Positions 12,936-36,984 of a stretch of 37,420 bases of DNA are shown in pieces; position 1 is the first letter of the stretch; every line of letters begins with the position of its first letter. The notes beneath the pieces were generated by a model. The model had not been told where the DNA came from and did no database searches. It was given only the letters and a program-made list of their open reading frames with translations. The translations under genes were made by a program, and so were the position numbers. Source of the DNA: Candidatus Fermentibacterota bacterium (GTDB lineage: Bacteria > Fermentibacterota > Fermentibacteria > Fermentibacterales > JCC-6); the NCBI GenBank assembly GCA_003644925.1, contig QNDS01000003.1, positions 1-37,420 of the forward strand, in the 5' to 3' direction.

Positions 12936-15900
12936 CTAAATTACGCGGAAGCGTTCGGTACCTATTTCAAGTATTTCCTTGCGGTACTCCTGGGAATGTG
13001 TCATCGGTGGCTGGATCGAAGCCGCCCTGGCATCGGCCGAAACGGAAATAAGCATTCCCCTGCCATCCCAGTTCCTCTCCTCCCCGGTATTCCAGTAGAA
13101 CCGTGCAAGATCTCCGAGTTTATCTCTTACAATACTATCAATACTCTCAACTGACGCATCAATACCGAATGCTCCTGCCAGAGCTTCAAGAACTTCCACA
13201 CCGGTTTTCCCCGACGGCGGTGCTACCGCTTTGGCGTACTCGATCAGGTTTCCTTCGAAGTTGCACCTTGATCCGGGAGTCTCAAGAAAAGTTGAACCCG
13301 GAAGTGTAACATCAGCGAACCTGGTTGTTTCGGTATCGGTCCAGTCCATGGCAGCAATGAAATCAGTATTACGGAACCAGGAACCCGGTCTGTTGTACTC
13401 CAACGGGTTCTCACCGATTATCAGCGCCGCTCTGATCGTACCTGCCTCAAGAATCTGCCACAGTTCCTGGCTTGTTGAAGCTCCGGGCAGCTTCTCGGCT
13501 GGAGCTGATCTACCAGGCAGGAATGCAGGATCGGCTCCCATTACCTCAAGACCTGCGCTGTTCGCAATCAGCCTGGGAAGAAGCACATCTGAAACCTTAC
13601 CCGCTTCTCTAAGCAGCAGGACCAGATCGGCGAATATTTCCATGTCATCCGGCGACGAACCCTGTGCTCTATCCGGACTGTGAATGAAAACAACATTTTC
13701 CGAATGACGGATAAGTTCAGCCGTTTCGTAAATATCTGATTCCTCCGCACCGGATCTGGCAGCTGATAATTCTACGGAAACCTCCCTGTTCAGAAGGAAC
13801 TCTTTGCCTCCGTCAATGTCTGCCGGAGAGACATCTCCATCATCTATGAGAACCTGCATAACAGCATTCCAGAAGATCGATGCCCTGCCTCTCATTGGAT
13901 CTACAGCAAGGGCTGCAAGGTGCTGATCCATAGAGTCAAGAGCTGAGTTCGAAACAATGAGCTTCGCCCCCTCCTTGACAGCCTGGATAACATCCACTGC
14001 AAGTATCAGATGATCAGATTGAAGGGATGTATTGTTGCAGATGATCAGATCAGCGTTTTCAAGACAGCTTCTGTCTGATGTGGAAGACGTGAAGCCGAAA
14101 GCAGGATCAAGGACACCGCTGCGCCCTCCGCCTGAGAGTATTGCGAGTGAGCCAATGTTGTTCGTCCCTATACCCTCCCTTGCAATTCTGCCTGCAAGGT
14201 AGAGTTCTTCATTTGTAAGTTCGGGGGATACGAAAACTGCAACGCTTTCGGGACCATGCTCATCGGCCACCTGCTTCAAAGATTCTACTATTCTTTCATT
14301 CGCCACCTCGAAACTCACCGGGCTGTAGGAATAGCCATCTTTCGCTGTTGGGCCTGTGAACCTTTTCTGCTTAATAAAATACTCCTGTCCGAACCGGCCG
14401 TATCTGCACAGATATTCTCCCGGTATTCCAGGCGATGCTATGAAATACCTTCCCTCACCAAAGGATCTTACGAGAATCTCACAGCCGAGCGAGCAGAAAC
14501 CGCAGTGAGTTTTTACATCTTCAGTTTCAAGACAGGCTCTTCCGGAGAAGGGGAATTTCACTGTAAGAGCTCCCGTCGGACAGGCATCAATACAGTTACC
14601 GCAGCTCACGCAGCTTGTTGAGACGAGAGGATCATTCATGGCAGGGCGCATTTCCGTTCTGAAACCCCTGCCGACAAATCCGATGGCAGAAACCGGCAGC
14701 ACTCTCGCGCATGTCCTGATGCATCTTGCGCAGAGAACGCACTTGTTAGGATCGTAGGAGATATACGGATGGCGGTCATCAACCTTGTGCTTTCGCACAT
14801 AACCCTTGAAATGCTCCATATCCACGCCGTATTCCTCACCGTAAAGCCTCAGGTCGCAGTCATCGAACCTCACGCAGCCGCATGACAGGCAGCGGTCGCA
14901 TTCATGCTCATTATCCTCGGGTTCAAAACCAGTTGCCACTTCAAGGAAGTTATTACGTCTGTCGTCCACATCTATCTGATGAACTTCGTGACGAGGTGAT
15001 TCTTTTATATCACCAAGCTCTGCTTTCCCGGGTTTTGACCAGAATTCCTTGTTGACAACGAAGGGATTTGGTTCAAGTTCCTCATTCAGAAGCCAGGCTT
15101 TTATTGCTTTTGCGGCTTTCTGCCCGTCTCTGATAGCATCGATGGCAACAGTGGGTCCATCATCAGCAGCATCTCCCCCTGCAAATACACCCTCAATATT
15201 GGTTTTCATTGTGTTTGCATCGATGACGTAGGTGTTCCACCTGGTAAGATCAAGCTCACCTTCATCTGTATCTACAAGACCGTCGAGAACGGTATTCTGA
15301 CCGATGGCAGAAATAGCAAGATCGCAGGGAAGATCGAATTCGGCACCCTCAATCGGGACCGGGCGACGTCTTCCGGAATCATCAGGCTCACCGAGCTTCA
15401 TCCTCTGGCAATGAAGGGCACTGATCATGCCGTTCTTCTTAATAATCCCAGTTGGAGCAGCCAGCTCCATTATTTCTATGCCCTCTTCCAGGCAATCTTC
15501 GATCTCCATCTTATCGGCAGGCATTTCAGCTTTAGTTCTCCTGTAGAGAACGATAACCTTATCAGCATTAAGCCTCCACGCCATCCGGGCGGCATCCATA
15601 GCGGTATTACCTCCGCCGACAACAACCACTGTCCCAGAGAGCAACGCGGGATCATCAGCTTTTTCAACAAGAAAATCTGCACCGGTTACTACGCCCTCTG
15701 TATCGAATTCACCTTCAACCCGCATGGCTTTTCCAGTCCAGGCTCCCGGACCAACAAAGACAGCGTCATGTTTTTCCCTCAGCTCCTCAAGGGTCACATC
15801 TTGTCCAACACGAACACCGCATCTGATCTCCGCACCTGTACGGCAGATATATTCAACCTCCCTGTCGAGTATCTCATCGGGAAGCCTGTATTCCGGAATA

Positions 15901-16601
15901 CCGTAACGCAGCATTCCACCGGTACGTTCTTTGGCTTCGTAAATAACAGGTTTTATCCCGCTTTTCCCCAGGAACCATGCAGCTGTGAGGCCTGCTGGTC
16001 CTGAGCCAATGATCGCAACAGTTTTTCCCGTATCAGGGGCACATTCAGGTACTGTATCGTACGCTTCCGGTGAATCGGAAACGAACCTTTTGATGTTGTT
16101 AATAGCGACGGGAGCATCTATATCCATTCTCCTGCACTCGTCCTCGCACTTGCGAACACAGACACGTGCACACATGGCTGGAAGCGGGTTCTTCTCGCGA
16201 ATGAGATCAACCGCCTTCTGATACTGCCCCATTGCGGATAGAGCTATGTATCCCTGAGCGTCAACACCTGCCGGGCAACCCTCCATACAGGGGGATATGC
16301 AATCCGCGTAATGATTGGAAAGCAGAAGTTCCAGAGCAGTTTTCCGGGATGCAAGGATTCTTTCGTTCCTTGTTTCGATCTCCATATCCTGCGCAATGCG
16401 CGTGGCGCATGCTGGAACCAGGTTACCTCTGCCCTTAACCTGCACAACACATACAAAACAGGAGCCGTACGGCTCCAGCTCCGGTGAGTGGCACAGGGTT
16501 GGGATACTGTCCAATCCATTCTCATGGACCACCTCAAGAATAGTCTTTCCTGGAGTGGCCTCGATCTCCTTACCGTTGATCTTTAATCTGATCTTATCCA
16601 T
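12936..16601 (-). CDS. Large subunit of a Bfu-family complex, StnC-like: [2Fe-2S] + GltD/NfnB-like FAD-NADP domain + [4Fe-4S] clusters + molybdopterin-oxidoreductase fold
   Basis: PTLC..GSCFVC..PAC; SPCMEGCP, CARVCVRKCEDEC; GSGPAG, GGMLRYGIPEYRL, GGGNTAMD, YRR, FAGGD; CVLCARCIRTC, CVSCGNCIDACP; CGFCSLGC..LC. No Mo-ligating Cys/Sec after GTNNI; no H-cluster motifs. Confidence 0.8.
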   Translation of the reverse strand: MDKIRLKINGKEIEATPGKTILEVVHENGLDSIPTLCHSPELEPYGSCFVCVVQVKGRGNLVPACATRIAQDMEIETRNERILASRKTALELLLSNHYADCISPCMEGCPAGVDAQGYIALSAMGQYQKAVDLIREKNPLPAMCARVCVRKCEDECRRMDIDAPVAINNIKRFVSDSPEAYDTVPECAPDTGKTVAIIGSGPAGLTAAWFLGKSGIKPVIYEAKERTGGMLRYGIPEYRLPDEILDREVEYICRTGAEIRCGVRVGQDVTLEELREKHDAVFVGPGAWTGKAMRVEGEFDTEGVVTGADFLVEKADDPALLSGTVVVVGGGNTAMDAARMAWRLNADKVIVLYRRTKAEMPADKMEIEDCLEEGIEIMELAAPTGIIKKNGMISALHCQRMKLGEPDDSGRRRPVPIEGAEFDLPCDLAISAIGQNTVLDGLVDTDEGELDLTRWNTYVIDANTMKTNIEGVFAGGDAADDGPTVAIDAIRDGQKAAKAIKAWLLNEELEPNPFVVNKEFWSKPGKAELGDIKESPRHEVHQIDVDDRRNNFLEVATGFEPEDNEHECDRCLSCGCVRFDDCDLRLYGEEYGVDMEHFKGYVRKHKVDDRHPYISYDPNKCVLCARCIRTCARVLPVSAIGFVGRGFRTEMRPAMNDPLVSTSCVSCGNCIDACPTGALTVKFPFSGRACLETEDVKTHCGFCSLGCEILVRSFGEGRYFIASPGIPGEYLCRYGRFGQEYFIKQKRFTGPTAKDGYSYSPVSFEVANERIVESLKQVADEHGPESVAVFVSPELTNEELYLAGRIAREGIGTNNIGSLAILSGGGRSGVLDPAFGFTSSTSDRSCLENADLIICNNTSLQSDHLILAVDVIQAVKEGAKLIVSNSALDSMDQHLAALAVDPMRGRASIFWNAVMQVLIDDGDVSPADIDGGKEFLLNREVSVELSAARSGAEESDIYETAELIRHSENVVFIHSPDRAQGSSPDDMEIFADLVLLLREAGKVSDVLLPRLIANSAGLEVMGADPAFLPGRSAPAEKLPGASTSQELWQILEAGTIRAALIIGENPLEYNRPGSWFRNTDFIAAMDWTDTETTRFADVTLPGSTFLETPGSRCNFEGNLIEYAKAVAPPSGKTGVEVLEALAGAFGIDASVESIDSIVRDKLGDLARFYWNTGEERNWDGRGMLISVSADARAASIQPPMTHSQEYRKEILEIGTERFRVI

Positions 16602-16610
16602 TGGCCGCTC

Positions 16611-18392
16611 CTACCTTGTAATTACTGCGCCGAAGTTGCAGCTTGTCATACACTTGCCACAATTAACGCAGGCTTCGATGTTAATCACGTGAACTTCTTT
16701 TACTTTGCCTGAAATGGCATCTACCGGACAGTTCTTAGCACAGAGAGTACACCCAACACACTTATCCGGGATGATATAGAATTCTACAAGCGCCTGGCAT
16801 TCACCGGCGGGACACTTCTTCTCGTGAATATGAGCATTATACTCGTCAAGGTAGTAGCGGATCGTTGTCTGTACCGGGTTAGGAGCGGTCTGTCCCAATC
16901 CGCATAGACTTGCTTCCTTTATCTGGATAGACAGCTGCTCGAGTTTTTCAATGTCCTCCGGCTCACCCTCTCCCCGGGTCAGTCTTTCCAGGATCTCAAG
17001 CATTCTCAGGGTCCCAATCCTGCAGAAAGTACATTTACCGCAGGATTCCTTCTGTGTGAAATCAAGGAAAAATCTTGCTATTTCAACCATGCATATATCC
17101 TCATCCATAACAACCATGCCGCCGGAGCCCATGATAGCGCCGGTGGCGGGGATGGATTCGAAATCCACGGGAGTATCCTTCATAGAAGCGGGGATGCAGC
17201 CTCCTGAGGGTCCGCCCATCTGAACAGCTTTGAATTCCTTCCCTTCCTTGATCCCTCCACCTATCTTGAAAACGAGATCCTCGATTGTTGTACCCATTGG
17301 AACTTCAGCCAGTCCTCCATGAACCACTTTCCCGGCCAGCGCGAATACCTTGGTTCCGGGACTTTTTTCTGTTCCGAAGGCTGTATAGGCTTCAGCACCA
17401 TTGCATATTATCCAGGGTACGTTCGCAAAGGTCTCAACATTGTTATTATTGGTAGGTTTCTGCCACAGACCCTTCTCCGCAGGAAATGGCGGGCGTATAC
17501 GGGGCATCCCGCGTTCTCCTTCGATAGATGCAAACAATGCGGTTTCTTCTCCGCAGACGAAAGCTCCCGCGCCCTGCTTTATCTTCAGGTCGAAATCGAA
17601 TCCGCTGCCGATGATATTCGTTCCAAGGTACCCCCGCTGTCTGGCCTCCGCAATGGCTATTTCCAGCCTGTGAATAGCCAGAGGATACTCGGCTCTGCAA
17701 TAGATATATCCGAATGTTGCTCCTATAGCCTTTGCGCAGATTATCATCCCTTCAAGGATCGCGTGGGGATCGCCCTCAAGAACCGACCTGTCCATGAACG
17801 CTCCGGGATCACCTTCATCAGCGTTGCAGACAACATATTTCTGATCTCCCTCATTCGCTGCAGCGAAGGACCACTTCAGACCTGTAGGGAATCCCGCTCC
17901 TCCGCGTCCGCGCAGCCCCGAGTCCTTGATGGTCTGGATTATCTCCGAAGGGGTCATTTCAGTAAGAGCTTTCCTAACTCCCTGATAACCTCCAGCGTTC
18001 TCGTAGTCTTCTATCGATTCGGGATCTATCGTACCGCAGTTGCGAAGTACGATTCTCTCCTGAAGATCAAGGAAATCAGACTCAGAACCGCAGGTGCTCC
18101 CATCAGGCCAGCAGGCATAAACAAGATTATCATCATCAATTACTTCGTTACCAAGAATGTGCTTACTGAAGATCTCCTCTGCAGATTCGGGGGTTACTCC
18201 GCCGTAGAATACTCTACTGTCCCCTTCTCTCACTTCAACCAGCGGCTCTCTGTAGCACATACCTATGCAGCCTGTTCTTGTAAGCATGCAAACATCAGGG
18301 TTAGCTGCTGCGAGTACAGAAAGTTTGTCGTAAGCCGCCTGAGCGCCGGCGGATAAACCGCAAGTACCCATTCCTACCACTATTTTCTTCAT
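16611..18392 (-). CDS. NuoF/HydB-like FMN/NADH subunit (BfuB/StnB type)
   Basis: Thioredoxin-like FeS N-domain (GTCG, TGCIGMC), GRGGAGFPTG, CNADEGDPGAFMD, GAGAFVCGEETAL, SCGKCTFCR, SLCGLG, H...KCPAGEC, C-terminal 2x[4Fe-4S]. Confidence 0.9.
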   Translation of the reverse strand: MKKIVVGMGTCGLSAGAQAAYDKLSVLAAANPDVCMLTRTGCIGMCYREPLVEVREGDSRVFYGGVTPESAEEIFSKHILGNEVIDDDNLVYACWPDGSTCGSESDFLDLQERIVLRNCGTIDPESIEDYENAGGYQGVRKALTEMTPSEIIQTIKDSGLRGRGGAGFPTGLKWSFAAANEGDQKYVVCNADEGDPGAFMDRSVLEGDPHAILEGMIICAKAIGATFGYIYCRAEYPLAIHRLEIAIAEARQRGYLGTNIIGSGFDFDLKIKQGAGAFVCGEETALFASIEGERGMPRIRPPFPAEKGLWQKPTNNNNVETFANVPWIICNGAEAYTAFGTEKSPGTKVFALAGKVVHGGLAEVPMGTTIEDLVFKIGGGIKEGKEFKAVQMGGPSGGCIPASMKDTPVDFESIPATGAIMGSGGMVVMDEDICMVEIARFFLDFTQKESCGKCTFCRIGTLRMLEILERLTRGEGEPEDIEKLEQLSIQIKEASLCGLGQTAPNPVQTTIRYYLDEYNAHIHEKKCPAGECQALVEFYIIPDKCVGCTLCAKNCPVDAISGKVKEVHVINIEACVNCGKCMTSCNFGAVITR

Positions 18393-30457: not shown

Positions 30458-31276
30458 ATGGATCCTGTTCTATCATTCCTGATATTGTTCATTATCGCCT
30501 TCACCAGTGAGTTCGTGGACTCTTCCCTGGGTATGGGTTACGGAACAACACTGACACCGATTCTGATAATAATGGGATACAACCCGCTTGTGGTCGTACC
30601 CGCAATACTCACTTCAGAACTCATTACCGGAAGCCTTGCCGCCTTTATGCATCACCGTGCCGGGAACGTACATTTTGATTTCAGGAACGATCCCGATCAC
30701 AAACTTATTAAGAAAATGAAATTACTCGGTTACATTCCCAGATCCAATGCCTCGAAAATTGCTCTTGTTCTTGCTGTATGCAGCCTTGCAGGCGCAGTCA
30801 TTGCTGTTTTCGTGGCCATTAATATTCCAAGGACATACCTTAAGGTGTTCATCGGCGTGATGGTCCTTTCAATGGGCATTTTAATCCTGCTGAAAAGAAA
30901 TTCAAGACCGCGATTTTCATGGAAAAAAATCGTAGGACTCGGAGTTCTGGCAGCCTTCAACAAGGGATTGTCCGGGGGTGGTTATGGCCCTCTGGTTACT
31001 TCAGGGCAGATCCTTTCGGGAGTTGACACGAAGAGTTCAGTTGCGATTACATCACTGGCCGAAGGCTTCACCTGCCTTGTGGGAGTATGCACTTTCCTTC
31101 TGCTTGGAACGGAATTTGACTGGACAATTACACTCGCCCTTCTTGCAGGAGCTGTAGCTTCTGTTCCGCTTTCAACCAGGGTTGTTAAGAAACTGAAAGT
31201 AAAGAATTTCACACTCATCGTTGGAACAGCCACGGTTATACTGGGGATATTTACTTTGTATAAGGTTGTTTTCTAG
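30458..31276 (+). CDS. TauE/SafE (TSUP) family sulfur-compound exporter
   Basis: VDSSLGMGYG..TPIL, repeated in NKGLSGGGYGP; about 8 TM helices. Confidence 0.87.
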   Translation: MDPVLSFLILFIIAFTSEFVDSSLGMGYGTTLTPILIIMGYNPLVVVPAILTSELITGSLAAFMHHRAGNVHFDFRNDPDHKLIKKMKLLGYIPRSNASKIALVLAVCSLAGAVIAVFVAINIPRTYLKVFIGVMVLSMGILILLKRNSRPRFSWKKIVGLGVLAAFNKGLSGGGYGPLVTSGQILSGVDTKSSVAITSLAEGFTCLVGVCTFLLLGTEFDWTITLALLAGAVASVPLSTRVVKKLKVKNFTLIVGTATVILGIFTLYKVVF

Positions 31277-32846: not shown

Positions 32847-33314
32847 TCAGCTGATGGAAGCTACTGGAATACGGGTGAGGGACTCTGAAGTGCAACCAGT
32901 ATAGAACCCTTCCTGGAAAGGAATCGGCGCATGGTTTGAAATGCTGCCCCATTGTGTTATCCGGCGAACGCAGTCATCCCGGAAGCCTGACAATCCGTTA
33001 TAGGCCAGACGGATGCGCTGAAGATCTTTTCCGCTGCAGCGGCCTGTTTCAAGACACAAGTCAATCATACAGAACAGTTCCTCTGCGATGAGTGATACCG
33101 AATAGCCTGCACTGTCGAGAAGAAGCTCCAGATCGGTTTCTTCCCATAATCCTGATACTTCCCGGAGTTTATCCGGAATAACGTGCCGCCTGTAATATGC
33201 AAGGCATTCAAATGGGGAATCGAACATTTCATCCGTGTATTCATTGTACCGGCTGTTCTCAAGAGTATCAGACCCTGCAAAGGAATGATGCCTTACGAAG
33301 AAACTTTTTTTCAT
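32847..33314 (-). CDS. Hypothetical protein
   Basis: 155-aa ORF with RBS AAGGAGG and an upstream TTGACA; no family recognised. Confidence 0.6.
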   Translation of the reverse strand: MKKSFFVRHHSFAGSDTLENSRYNEYTDEMFDSPFECLAYYRRHVIPDKLREVSGLWEETDLELLLDSAGYSVSLIAEELFCMIDLCLETGRCSGKDLQRIRLAYNGLSGFRDDCVRRITQWGSISNHAPIPFQEGFYTGCTSESLTRIPVASIS

Positions 33315-33498
33315 GCTGCCTCCTTCTCAATTATTCCTATAGGTAAACATATGTATACATAGCGAGATGTCAAGCAGACATTCGGAATACTTATCGGAGT
33401 GCCTTGACATTTACATTGATTCGCTGTTAATTATTCACAGGCAATTGTTAAGCAGCGATCAATATCACTTCTGCTGCAAAACGAATGGAGGTATTTCT

Positions 33499-33747
33499 AT
33501 GAAATTCCTGGTAACAATGCCGAAGCTCTCGCCAGATGAGATAGACAGATCCTGAGCAAAGGTCATTGAAGCTTCCGGTGGAAGCGGAATGGCCATGGAC
33601 CGGGCATATACGAACCGGGATGAAGGATTTGTCTGCTGCTGCTGGAACGCTCCCTCCCTCGACAGTCTTAAAGGACTTTTTGAAAAAGCCGATGCTCCCT
33701 TCGATAAGATGGAGCCGGTTACGGAGCACTTAGCAGCTGCATGGTGA
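33499..33747 (+). CDS. DUF4242 (SCO4226-like) small protein with in-frame TGA at codon 19; putative selenoprotein
   Basis: GGAGG RBS (33487-33491), ATG 33499. Readthrough gives MKFLVTMPKLSPDEIDRS-U-AKVIEASGGSGMAMDRAYTNRDEGFVCCCWNAPSLDSLKGLFEKADAPFDKMEPVTEHLAAAW; the C-terminal half fits the DUF4242 pattern. TTGACA at 33404 upstream and a hairpin downstream. Confidence 0.7.
33561..33594 (+). promoter_or_regulatory. Putative bacterial SECIS element
   Basis: GGTCATT-gaa-GCTTCC-ggt-GGAAGC-gg-AATGGCC: lower stem, internal loop, 6-bp upper stem and a GGU apical loop separated from the TGA (33553-33555) by 21 nt. Confidence 0.65.
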
Positions 33748-33762
33748 TTGCTGTCCTTCATG

Positions 33763-33793
33763 ATAGAGCCCGTCTTCAACAGGCGGGCTCTAT
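33763..33793. terminator. Hairpin between convergent genes, probable terminator
   Basis: ATAGAGCCCGTCT-tcaac-AGGCGGGCTCTAT; weak U-tract. Confidence 0.6.
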
Positions 33794-34533
33794 TCCCATA
33801 TGAAGTATTTTGCGGCAAAAGCGAAACCTGCTACCGTGACGCCGCACAGGACTAATATCTGAACGGGATACTCCCACAGATGCCCGCCGAGCCATAGCCC
33901 CTGCAGCAGCTCAATCACATGAGTAAGGGGAAGAATCTGTGAGAAGGATTTCAGGAAAGATGGGAGCATTTCCCTTGGAAGGGCAGCTCCGGAAAGAAAC
34001 AGCATTGGAAAATACATGACATTGGAAATTATCATAGCGCTTCGGGCAGTGGGGGCCAGGCTGGCCGGAATGAATCCCAATGCGGAAATAGAGAGAGTGG
34101 ACAGAACAAATGCAAAAAATACTTCGGGAATATTGCCGTAAAAACGCATTCCAAAAACAATCACTCCAGCCGCAAGGAGAAGGAGCATCCCCAAAACCGT
34201 AATTATGAATAGTGAAGATAACTCCGCTGTGAGAACCAGAAGGGGAGAAATCGGAGCAGATTTGAACCTCCTTAAAATTCCCTTCTCCCTGTAGGCTGCG
34301 ATGCTTGTTGTAAGACCCGAGATTCCGGTGGTTAAGATCACTATCCCTATGAAAGCGGGAACGGCGAAATCTATGTATCCGAAATTTTCACCCGGAAATG
34401 GGTCATTACCCCAGATACTTCCGAACAGCATCATAAGCAGCAGCGGGAATATCAGTGTAAAGAAGAAGCCTGATGGTTCCCTCAGGTAAAGGACAAACTC
34501 CATTCGTGTCAGGTTGAAATACCGCTTAAACAT
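33790..34533 (-). CDS. ABC-2 type exporter permease
   Basis: LREP..FFTLIFP, YREKGILRR, PMLFLSGA, ILPLTH; six TMs. Confidence 0.9.
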   Translation of the reverse strand: MFKRYFNLTRMEFVLYLREPSGFFFTLIFPLLLMMLFGSIWGNDPFPGENFGYIDFAVPAFIGIVILTTGISGLTTSIAAYREKGILRRFKSAPISPLLVLTAELSSLFIITVLGMLLLLAAGVIVFGMRFYGNIPEVFFAFVLSTLSISALGFIPASLAPTARSAMIISNVMYFPMLFLSGAALPREMLPSFLKSFSQILPLTHVIELLQGLWLGGHLWEYPVQILVLCGVTVAGFAFAAKYFIWE

Positions 34534-35472: not shown

Positions 35473-36984
35473 TCAGTTCAGGACTGTTACCGTTTTCTTA
35501 AGCTCCAGCGAGCCGTTGGACAGGACAACGAAGAACACTCCGGAATTCCACGATGACACATCAACTGTCTCCTCACCGCTGAGTTCAGCAGACCATACGA
35601 GCCGGCCGGAAAGATCATAGATCCCGCAGTTCCACTCTCCCTGCGGCGGGGTGAGAACCATTACGCTTTCCAGAGGGTTCTGCATGACTATATTTCCGGC
35701 AAATCCTACCGGAGGGTTTTCTCCACAGGATGTTCCGACTGCGGAGAGGAAAGCCCAGGCATGATATGGCTGGCTCTGCTGGTCCTGCAGACCCGCCAGT
35801 ACAATGGGTGAAGGAGAAATTGTTTCCATATAAATTGTGCTTACGTTGTAAACTCTTTCAGTAAAAGGCTGCTCCCAGATCAGATCCCCGCTCAGTGCAT
35901 CAACAAGTGTTATCTTTCTTCCGTTGATGCTTCCTCCAACGATGCATGGAACCCATGCCCCCGCGGTGTAGACTGAATCAGCCCAGGCTACACTCCAGGT
36001 ATTCGAACCTGTGGCGTAACTCCATAGGGTAACTCCGGTGGCTCCATCGAGACAGATCGTTCCCGCATTGTCCCCGGCAACAGCGATCTCTGCAATTCCA
36101 TCCCCATTTATATCTGGTCCCCCTTCAACATCAAGAAGCATTCCTCCGAGATCTCTTGCCCACAGCGAATCACCGCCAAGGCTGTAACACTGCACTTCTC
36201 CGCTGAAAGAACTGCTGACCATCCAGGGAACGGTATCCTCACGATCAACAGCCGATACGCACATGACATCTCCGCCGCCGTTCCTGTTCCATATAAGAGA
36301 GCCGTCTGCACCATCTACCAGTTCCAGTGTGAAGTCTGTGTAGGAGTTTCCTCCTATTCCAAGGTATATCTCCTGTACACCGTCACCCGTTACATCAGGT
36401 ACGGCAAGTACATCCTCAACGGCATCCACCGTGGTTCTGGTCCAGAGGGTATCCCCGGTAGCACCGTTCAAGCAGGCTGCAGCGGATGTGTTGGCACCCC
36501 CCGTAGAACCGAACCCCCCGAGAAGCTCCGGAAGGTTATCGCCGGTCTGATCTTCCATCAGACAGCAGCTGTAACCCCATCCGGCTCCGGTGGACATGTT
36601 CTCATATGCGCTCCACAACCATATAAGGGATCCGTCTATCCCGGAAATCAGTATCAGGCATCTTCCCGGAGGGGCATAACCGCCCGGTGTGGCCATCAGA
36701 ATATCTCCGTAACCGTCTCCATTCATGTCCGGCACTCCTGCAAGGCCCTCATCCTGGTAAATGCCGTTGTACTGATCACTGGTCCAGAGGGTATCCCCTG
36801 AAGCACCTGAAAGGCACCACAGAGTAGGCTCATCATCAAAGTAGTTTAAACCGCTGGCCACATCCGGAACACCATCACCGTCTATATCGCCGATATCAAC
36901 CGTTGAATAAACACCGCCGCTTGTAACGTTCGCCCACAGTGTATCCGGCGCACTTGCAGTAAGAATCAGTATCATTAATATCAT
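35473..36984 (-). CDS. Secreted FG-GAP/PQQ-like beta-propeller protein with T9SS/FlgD-like C-terminal domain
   Basis: Repeats DIDGDGVPD, DMNGDGYGD, DQTGDNLPE, DVTGDGVQE, DINGDGIAE alternating with CLxGxxGDTLW; C-terminal NP...IYDLSGRLV...SGVFFV. Confidence 0.8.
   Translation of the reverse strand: MILMILILTASAPDTLWANVTSGGVYSTVDIGDIDGDGVPDVASGLNYFDDEPTLWCLSGASGDTLWTSDQYNGIYQDEGLAGVPDMNGDGYGDILMATPGGYAPPGRCLILISGIDGSLIWLWSAYENMSTGAGWGYSCCLMEDQTGDNLPELLGGFGSTGGANTSAAACLNGATGDTLWTRTTVDAVEDVLAVPDVTGDGVQEIYLGIGGNSYTDFTLELVDGADGSLIWNRNGGGDVMCVSAVDREDTVPWMVSSSFSGEVQCYSLGGDSLWARDLGGMLLDVEGGPDINGDGIAEIAVAGDNAGTICLDGATGVTLWSYATGSNTWSVAWADSVYTAGAWVPCIVGGSINGRKITLVDALSGDLIWEQPFTERVYNVSTIYMETISPSPIVLAGLQDQQSQPYHAWAFLSAVGTSCGENPPVGFAGNIVMQNPLESVMVLTPPQGEWNCGIYDLSGRLVWSAELSGEETVDVSSWNSGVFFVVLSNGSLELKKTVTVLN

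Follow-up and report, generated by a model that had tools for sequence, protein, structure and literature searches.

How should a short reading frame be interpreted when a single in-frame TGA divides it in two, and when only the part that follows the TGA has been called as a gene? This question is raised by positions 33499-33747 (+ strand) of a 37,420-nucleotide stretch of contig QNDS01000003.1 from a Candidatus Fermentibacterota bacterium (assembly GCA_003644925.1), a stretch that is referred to throughout as the window. A preliminary description of this DNA had proposed that the frame is a hidden, DUF4242-like selenoprotein gene in which the TGA is decoded as selenocysteine (Sec). The proposal is strongly supported by the analysis reported here, no computational refutation test having overturned it, and comparative sequence evidence makes it very probable that a selenoprotein of 82 residues and SCO4226-like kin is encoded by a functional gene at 33499-33747.

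The gene structure that had been outlined is confirmed by direct reading of the sequence. A Shine-Dalgarno motif, GGAGG (33487-33491, +), lies 7 nt 5' of the ATG, and the coding sequence (33499-33747, +) comprises 82 codons, including an in-frame UGA at codon 19 (33553-33555, +), which on comparative grounds is read as Sec; after it come 63 sense codons, and a second TGA (33745-33747, +) closes the frame. The readthrough product of 82 amino acids (aa) contains the distal CCC cluster of the original proposal at residues 46-48 (codons for Cys46, Cys47 and Cys48 at 33634-33642, +). In place of the full gene, the list of open reading frames (ORFs) for the window holds a 52-aa ORF that starts at Met31 (33589-33747, +), and the same Met31 fragment is recorded in GenBank as a 52-aa 'hypothetical protein' (MCK5065076.1, NOQ23681.1).

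Conservation of the in-frame TGA and its downstream hairpin

Relatives of the gene were sought with a six-frame, stop-tolerant search over 60 related genomes and then over all 70 available genomes of the phylum. The gene was found in 14 of the 60 related genomes, at identities from 93% down to 51% and with one TGA per full-length match, and in all 15 first-round sequences the TGA occupies the same codon, with a start codon and a Shine-Dalgarno motif upstream of each (GGAGG/GGGAGG-type in 15/15). The orthologues are 77-86 aa long and align from residue 1, and the first-round consensus (MKxLVTMPK...I.R[SA]U..V..ASGGSGM.M[DE]RAY.N..EG...CCCW.APS) contains conserved residues on either side of the TGA. 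The phylum-wide search matched the gene in 20 genomes, again with exactly one TGA in each full-length match; the full-length matches, which came from 18 other genomes, have it at the same codon.

A locus search with the alignment of this first subfamily found Fermentibacterota only. A metagenome scan with a second, more distant subfamily of the CCW-x-APD type returned 48 loci. The homologous codon is TGA in 39 of them (31 distinct 60-nt segments), seven (six distinct; L109-L114) have TGC or TGT at the position of codon 19, and two are spurious. Pooling 19 Fermentibacterota genomes with the 31 metagenome sequences gives 50 distinct TGA orthologues, and in these the internal stop is TGA in 50/50, down to about 50% identity. 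The terminal stops of the same 50 sequences are spread over TGA (19), TAG (16) and TAA (14), with one lying off a contig end. Upstream of the TGA, conserved residues vary synonymously, with three codons used for L4 and four for P8.

Protein databases were also searched. A profile search of 1.84 billion representative proteins produced 58 matches, 31 of which are short ORFs whose first residue aligns to positions 21-48, just past the stop; seven are full length, with Cys (P0005, P0013, P0014 and P0025) or Trp (P0003, P0006 and P0021) at column 19. A word-index protein search found one relative only, and this is truncated. The check proposed in the preliminary description, whether codon 19 is TGA in relatives and Cys in other homologues, thus came out in favour of the proposal: TGA in all 50 orthologues, and Cys in 6 DNA homologues plus 4 database proteins. 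The description had also pointed to an S-C motif in this helix of many DUF4242 proteins that could align with R-S-U; this fits loosely only, as the Cys homologues carry A, T or N before the Cys.

The three Trp forms all derive from contigs of 601-1457 nt. DNA was recovered for P0003 only (L070, 99% identical), and its codon 19 is TGA, so the Trp in P0003 is a code-4 mistranslation of a short contig. As a separate observation, code-4 gene calling on short contigs can disguise selenoproteins as Trp proteins. In P0040, P0043 and P0046 (210-250 aa) and in P0037 (1440 aa), the profile matched in two to four stretches, which suggests tandem or fused DUF4242-like domains.

The second element of the proposal, a two-stem hairpin with a GGU apical loop 21 nt from the UGA, was verified by reading and by folding. 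This hairpin, of the selenocysteine insertion sequence (SECIS) type, occupies 33561-33594 (+) in a region that begins eight nt past the TGA; its lower stem pairs 33561-33567 with 33588-33594. The core bacterial SECIS (bSECIS) at 33571-33585 (+) is formed by codons 25-29 (A-S-G-G-S) and has a 6-bp apical stem, GCUUCC/GGAAGC (33571-33576 with 33580-33585), and the loop GGU (33577-33579), which starts 21 nt after the UGA. The published bSECIS model has a 3-9 nt loop with G in its first two positions, a 4-16 bp stem, a spacing of 16-37 nt and a minimum free energy <= -7.5 kcal/mol (PMC13188914). The window element has all four of these properties, and 49/50 of the TGA sequences fit the model, the exception being L071.

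Comparison of the orthologues indicates how strongly this structure has been retained. The six core pairs are standard pairs in 295/300 cells over the 50 TGA sequences, and the exceptions to strict identity include four wobbles and two double compensatory changes (U-A to C-G in L086, U-A to G-C in L108). Covariation is also seen at a seventh pair that closes the stem (UA 14, CG 11, UG 3, GC 1, unpaired 21); with this pair included, 92.6% of cells are paired, versus 27-63% for slid partners, and the covariation score of the stem was reached by 0/500 shuffles. The codons that form the stem are frozen across the 50 sequences (GCT 49/50, TCC 42/50, GGA 49/50, AGC 47/50), and the loop codon takes nine forms, beginning with G and then G or U in 48 sequences. 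Within the 15 first-round sequences, each of the four stem residues uses a single codon (GCT, TCC, GGA, AGC), other invariant multi-codon residues use two to four codons each, and the product of the four stem-codon frequencies in the long ORFs of the genome is 0.0038. The lower stem is 79% paired in the 15 Fermentibacterota sequences, and one of its pairs (col15-col36), both members of which are synonymous third positions, covaries as well (UA 7, CG 6, UG 1, unpaired 1). In the 6 distinct homologues with a Cys codon, pairing in the columns of the core stem drops to 41% and the hairpin is absent. Thus, the hairpin is kept, with covariation, in orthologues that carry TGA and is missing from the Cys forms.

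No Rfam family matches this hairpin. Its resemblance to a canonical bSECIS (Zhang and Gladyshev model, as given in the legend to Fig. 2 of PMC13188914) lies in its position inside the coding sequence immediately 3' of the UGA, a 3-nt loop starting GG or GU, an upper stem of 6-7 bp and a spacing of 21 nt. It departs from such canonical elements in being very small, in having a stem (GCUUCC/GGAAGC) that is near-invariant across two subfamilies, and in the use of this stem to encode a conserved peptide, A-S-G-G-S.

The genome that contains the window, a bin of 492 contigs that is 86.6% complete with 7% contamination, has the machinery needed to decode such an element, since tRNA-Sec, selA, selB and selD, all named in the preliminary description or its proposed check, are all present. 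The tRNA-Sec scores 75 bits and is called SeC(tca) by ARAGORN, and selA scores 511 bits. For selB, two pieces were found at contig ends beside selA, neither of which, at 131.9 and 173.2 bits, reaches the cut-off set for the whole protein; the selB start follows selA at the end of one contig and the remainder opens another (selA/selB at contigs C119:7035-8665 and C94:8780-10324 of this genome, G000; loci L015, L010 and L009), so the sel operon is broken by assembly, not missing. Across the phylum, selA is found in 67/70 genomes, in 46/46 of those of good quality and in every genome that carries the selenoprotein gene.

The selD gene of the same genome (contig C19:21849-22775, -; locus L016) provides an internal comparison, as it has an in-frame TGA (motif CAG-U-AGKL) and a short GGC-triloop hairpin 22 nt past this codon. 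The loop type and spacing are those of the window hairpin, and the two hairpins are presumably read by the same SelB, although the selD stem is bulged and selD encodes an unrelated protein of known function.

These features are consistent with a canonical recoding pathway. The ribosome would start at the ATG behind GGAGG, and SelB-GTP with Sec-tRNA(Sec) would bind the hairpin of codons 25-29 when UGA19 is reached, so that Sec would be inserted rather than translation being terminated, and synthesis would continue to the terminal stop.

Protein family, predicted active site and possible function

The window protein matches PF14026 (SCO4226-like, formerly DUF4242) with an E value of 6.5e-5 and 23.5 bits, and 25/25 aligned Sec, Cys and distant relatives match the same family at E <= 0.01 (best 5e-24). 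The DUF4242 likeness noted earlier therefore corresponds to a real family match, albeit one below the gathering score, and since the match is sub-threshold even though all 25 relatives match, the protein is filed as a distant PF14026 relative. NCBIfam release 20.0 contains no matching model beyond two weak hits. When a profile built from the Sec forms only was compared with the Protein Data Bank (PDB), the sole match was 4oi3, the structure of SCO4226 (E 0.0053); a broader profile matched 4oi3 at E 2.5e-14. In both profile alignments Sec19 aligns with His23 and Cys47 with Cys51 of SCO4226, and when 25 sequences (Sec forms, Cys forms and distant DUF4242 proteins) are aligned, the column of Cys47 is the only one without variation.

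The known protein with which the window product can best be compared is SCO4226 of Streptomyces coelicolor (PDB 4OI3/4OI6, PF14026, NF033706). The two share a length of about 80 residues and an invariant Cys (C47/Cys51); SCO4226 differs in having a His where the window protein has Sec and in being without the CCC cluster. According to the structural paper, SCO4226 is a ferredoxin-like dimer whose nickel ligands are His23, Asp43, Ser46, Glu74 and His76, with His23 ligating Ni-2, and whose residues Tyr50 and Leu52 face the dimer core (PMC4186839). It follows from the orientation of Tyr50 and Leu52 that residue 51 faces the helices. The nickel ligands named there map to Sec19, Asn39, Glu42, Lys70 and Glu72 of the window protein; because the Ni-1 ligands are not conserved and the score falls short of the SCO4226 equivalog model, the window protein is not a nickel protein of the SCO4226 type.

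The window product is a distant member of the SCO4226-like family and would be expected to share its ferredoxin-like beta-alpha-beta-beta-alpha-beta fold, a dimer in which the C-terminal strand is swapped. From this fold and the text describing SCO4226, we infer that Sec19 would lie on the sheet-facing side of helix alpha1 (I15-U19-V22/I23), adjoining Cys47 on strand beta3, and that the side chains of Cys46 and Cys48 would be directed towards the interface of the dimer. In such an arrangement, Sec19 and Cys47 may form a selenol-thiol redox or soft-metal/chalcogen-binding centre; the chance that Sec19 and Cys47 do make up a redox or metal centre is judged to be close to even, or a little below.

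Additional insight into function comes from genes that adjoin the selenoprotein gene in other lineages. In metagenomes, for which context is limited to 1.5-kb flanks, 8/32 distinct genes have a Sec-containing selD directly upstream, which shares their strand in seven cases and is divergent in one. Downstream there is a gene for an FtrB-like, all-Cys protein (CPC...CPC...CxC motifs) in 7/32, and one for a double-cubane-type reductase (NF040772 / HGD-D) in 5/32. Clusters of selD, the selenoprotein gene, the FtrB-like gene and the double-cubane gene are located at L087, L089, L096, L097/L098 and L100 (also L081, L083 and L079).

Within Fermentibacterota, two genomes of the genus to which the window belongs have genes for an HGD-D protein (371 aa), a second HGD-D protein (865 aa), an activase (260 aa) and, last, the selenoprotein, all on one strand (L118, G014:C139, 6357-10842; L119, G023:C122, 3772-8254). 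The 865-aa protein is a double HGD-D fusion and the 260-aa protein is an activase of the acyl-CoA dehydratase type. A third genome has the activase gene followed by the selenoprotein gene, and the HGD-D/activase cluster is absent from the locus in the genome of the window and in G020. Conservation of neighbours is weak within Fermentibacterota beyond the genus.

Given the selD/ftrB-like/double-cubane or HGD-D/activase clusters of these other lineages, the gene context suggests that the product may be a small carrier, either of electrons in redox reactions or of selenium/sulfur, on which iron-sulfur reductases of low potential act. The linkage to selD is suggestive of a redox or selenium role but is not proof of one, because selenoprotein genes often share operons, as noted in section 9 of PMC13188914. 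Even so, the recurring neighbourhood of selD, FtrB-like and double-cubane-reductase genes constitutes a testable functional lead. A more specific and quite improbable version is a selenium or sulfane sulfur/selenium relay, in which Sec19/Cys47 would carry a selenenyl-sulfide or perselenide and pass the chalcogen to SelD. The carrier would be recycled by a [4Fe-4S] disulfide reductase of the FtrB-like kind, which would in turn be supplied by a double-cubane reductase that is driven by ATP. If such a relay existed, it would belong to the system that donates selenium to selenophosphate synthetase in anaerobes under physiological conditions, a system that has long been sought.

Several observations bear on whether this family has been described before. 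Among known small selenoproteins, the families NF041239 (CC/Se motif) and NF041197 (Dual CXXC motif) are similar in being short, in having one Sec and Cys homologues, and in having predicted redox or metal roles while being known computationally only. The window protein differs from them in fold family and in that its Sec lies outside a UxxC/CxxU motif, the likely partner Cys being 28 residues away; models of the NF041239/NF041197 type were not returned for it by the NCBIfam scan (E <= 1). The 119 families and subfamilies of prokaryotic selenoproteins that are listed in Table 1 of a 2026 review include no PF14026, DUF4242 or SCO4226 entry (PMC13188914), and a term search of the deep-Sep and BSepDB papers found no mention of the PF14026/DUF4242 family. 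In full-text literature, supplementary tables not being covered, nothing was found that joins DUF4242 to selenoproteins, SCO4226 to selenocysteine or Fermentibacter to selenocysteine, and by title and abstract none of the papers naming DUF4242, PF14026 or SCO4226-like is on selenoproteins. Consequently, the earlier remark that DUF4242 is not known as an established selenoprotein family agrees with that table and with the literature searched.

Taken on its sequence record, this is very probably a true family of selenoproteins, conserved over a wide range, absent as yet from the catalogues and making use of a canonical recoding mechanism. It would add a family in the SCO4226-like, ferredoxin-like fold, one that is unrecorded as Sec-using in the searched literature; since the recoding mechanism is textbook, this is an addition to a known class and not a new principle. 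The family also illustrates a systematic annotation error, in which GenBank and metagenome gene callers record either the 52-aa fragment or a Trp code-4 mistranslation, and a curated model could correct the annotation across many sediment and cold-seep bacteria. In addition, the analysis singles out position 19 and the invariant Cys47 as the place where the active site of this uncharacterised domain probably lies.

Alternative readings of the gene and of its function

Other explanations for the interrupted frame need to be considered. One is that the locus yields two products, an 18-codon upstream ORF (uORF) that ends at the TGA and a 52-aa protein from Met31, with the hairpin acting in translational coupling or attenuation. 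Gene callers pick the Met31 ORF everywhere, a purine-rich stretch (GGUGGAAGCGGA) lies 5' of Met31, and contigs assembled from RNA libraries begin only 4-23 nt ahead of the TGA, all of which would be expected on this view. However, full-length Cys and distant DUF4242 proteins, which are uninterrupted, begin with a strand and a helix to which residues 1-30 show homology, so that a 52-aa protein would miss beta1 and alpha1 of the fold, and codons 20-30 evolve as coding sequence (V22 is kept and the third base varies). It is also difficult to reconcile two products with an internal stop that is always TGA, never TAA or TAG, or with a hairpin that vanishes exactly where the codon is Cys, and this explanation is considered very improbable. 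The chance that the frame is a pseudogene, a recent nonsense mutation or the result of an assembly or sequencing error is negligible. A single in-frame stop in a small ORF, within so fragmented and incomplete a bin, could raise this concern, yet the same TGA is present in 50 distinct sequences from independent assemblies at about 50-93% identity, and no other frame disruption was seen. Moreover, the whole stretch is spanned by contigs of an independent DNA run, and about 33530-33750 is covered by contigs that come from three RNA libraries, made in three studies; neither set differs from the window at 33553-33555; since the independent DNA and the three RNA-library contigs agree at the TGA, which answers the doubt about the reads raised in the preliminary description, a local assembly error is excluded. 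Equally negligible is the prospect that an ordinary amino acid (Trp or Gly, codes 4/25) is inserted at the TGA, or that the codon is passed by SECIS-independent, near-cognate readthrough. The three database proteins with W at position 19 would favour it, but the W form P0003 has TGA in its DNA (DNA for P0006 and P0021 was not recovered), and the genome has all of the Sec machinery as well as a hairpin of the SECIS type. In addition, TGA ends 528/1196 long ORFs of the genome as its commonest ordinary stop, and ends the selenoprotein gene itself, so it is not reassigned. The pseudogene or error, a reassigned TGA and the uORF with a 52-aa protein were all rejected on these grounds.

A further alternative accepts the gene as a genuine selenoprotein and concerns its function only: the protein would bind or buffer metal as SCO4226 does, with Sec as a soft-metal ligand and with neither a redox-carrier role nor a link to selenium metabolism. 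This is thought unlikely, while having several observations in its favour. Sec19 aligns with His23, which the structural paper names as a Ni-2 ligand; the adjacency of selD would reflect the common clustering of selenoprotein genes, which according to PMC13188914 often share operons; the same review catalogues several predicted metal-binding selenoprotein families; and an ABC-type exporter adjoins the gene in 5/14 mapped Fermentibacterota loci, the window's included. On the other hand, the Ni-1 residues Asp43, Ser46 and His76 are replaced by Asn39, Glu42 and Glu72, SCO4226 itself is described as binding nickel weakly via surface His (PMC4186839), and two subfamilies that are distant from each other both have FtrB-like and double-cubane neighbours, a recurrence that speaks for redox chemistry.

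There are also observations that weigh against a redox-active selenoprotein at this locus, or that limit how far this interpretation can be taken. The gene is limited to 20/70 genomes of the phylum. The 60-nt fold has an ordinary energy (-18.1 kcal/mol, z -1.42, 18/200 shuffles as good; for the 33-nt core, -14.1 kcal/mol, z -3.04), so the case for the hairpin has to rest on comparison, since the fold of the single sequence is unremarkable. The lower stem is specific to Fermentibacterota, not being conserved in the metagenome subfamily, and L071 bears the TGA with 2/6 stem pairs broken and no early loop G. The RNA-library contigs are only a hint of expression, and they cannot prove transcription because DNA can occur in RNA libraries. 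At the level of the protein, the 23.5 bits of the window product are below the PF14026 gathering cut-off of 28.5, its 19.5 bits against the NCBIfam NF033706 SCO4226 equivalog are far from the 125 of that model, and the proximity of Sec19 to Cys47 is reasoned from fold topology and from the text of the structural paper. At the level of gene context, the neighbours within the window say nothing on function, the selD/FtrB/double-cubane (DCCP) context is absent at the window locus, and the selD-linked loci represent about three lineages, not eight independent events, because many are close relatives.

Flanking features and neighbouring genes

Upstream of the selenoprotein gene, the TTGACA that had been noted is present as a -35-like hexamer (33404-33409, +); a sigma-70 consensus scan found no matching -10 for it on the + strand. 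The downstream hairpin mentioned in the same description was recovered as a 14-bp perfect hairpin (33762-33794) between the selenoprotein gene and the convergent ABC-2 permease gene, with a strong fold (-23.2 kcal/mol, z -4.86, 0/200 shuffles equally stable). It has no T-run and a terminator scan does not score it as terminator-like; it is possibly a shared terminator of the two convergent genes.

The neighbours of the gene in the window are a convergent ABC-2 transporter pair, a 155-aa ORF, a gene for a B12-binding radical SAM protein, TauE and a protein with a PPDK_N (pyruvate phosphate dikinase N-terminal) domain. Of the two transporters reported to lie within about 3.5 kb, TauE was located by a family scan (30458-31276), and YeeE/YedE was not found among the seven larger ORFs scanned between 27.0 and 37.0 kb. 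The 155-aa ORF (32847-33314, -) is oriented away from the selenoprotein gene, and neither Pfam nor NCBIfam has a family that it matches; it is kept in G020, and a longer 215-aa form occurs in G011.

Two other regions of the window contain genes of separate interest. In a 1221-aa ORF (12936-16601, -), domains of the 2Fe-2S, GltD-like pyridine-nucleotide oxidoreductase, 4Fe-4S and molybdopterin-oxidoreductase types are joined in one protein. A NuoF-like gene (16611-18392) follows, and the arrangement resembles that of a molybdoenzyme complex linked to formate or NAD(P)H. A 503-aa FG-GAP/beta-propeller protein (35473-36984, -) carries a Por_Secre_tail domain, a C-terminal sorting domain of type IX secretion, which fits an FCB-group-like cell envelope in this phylum.

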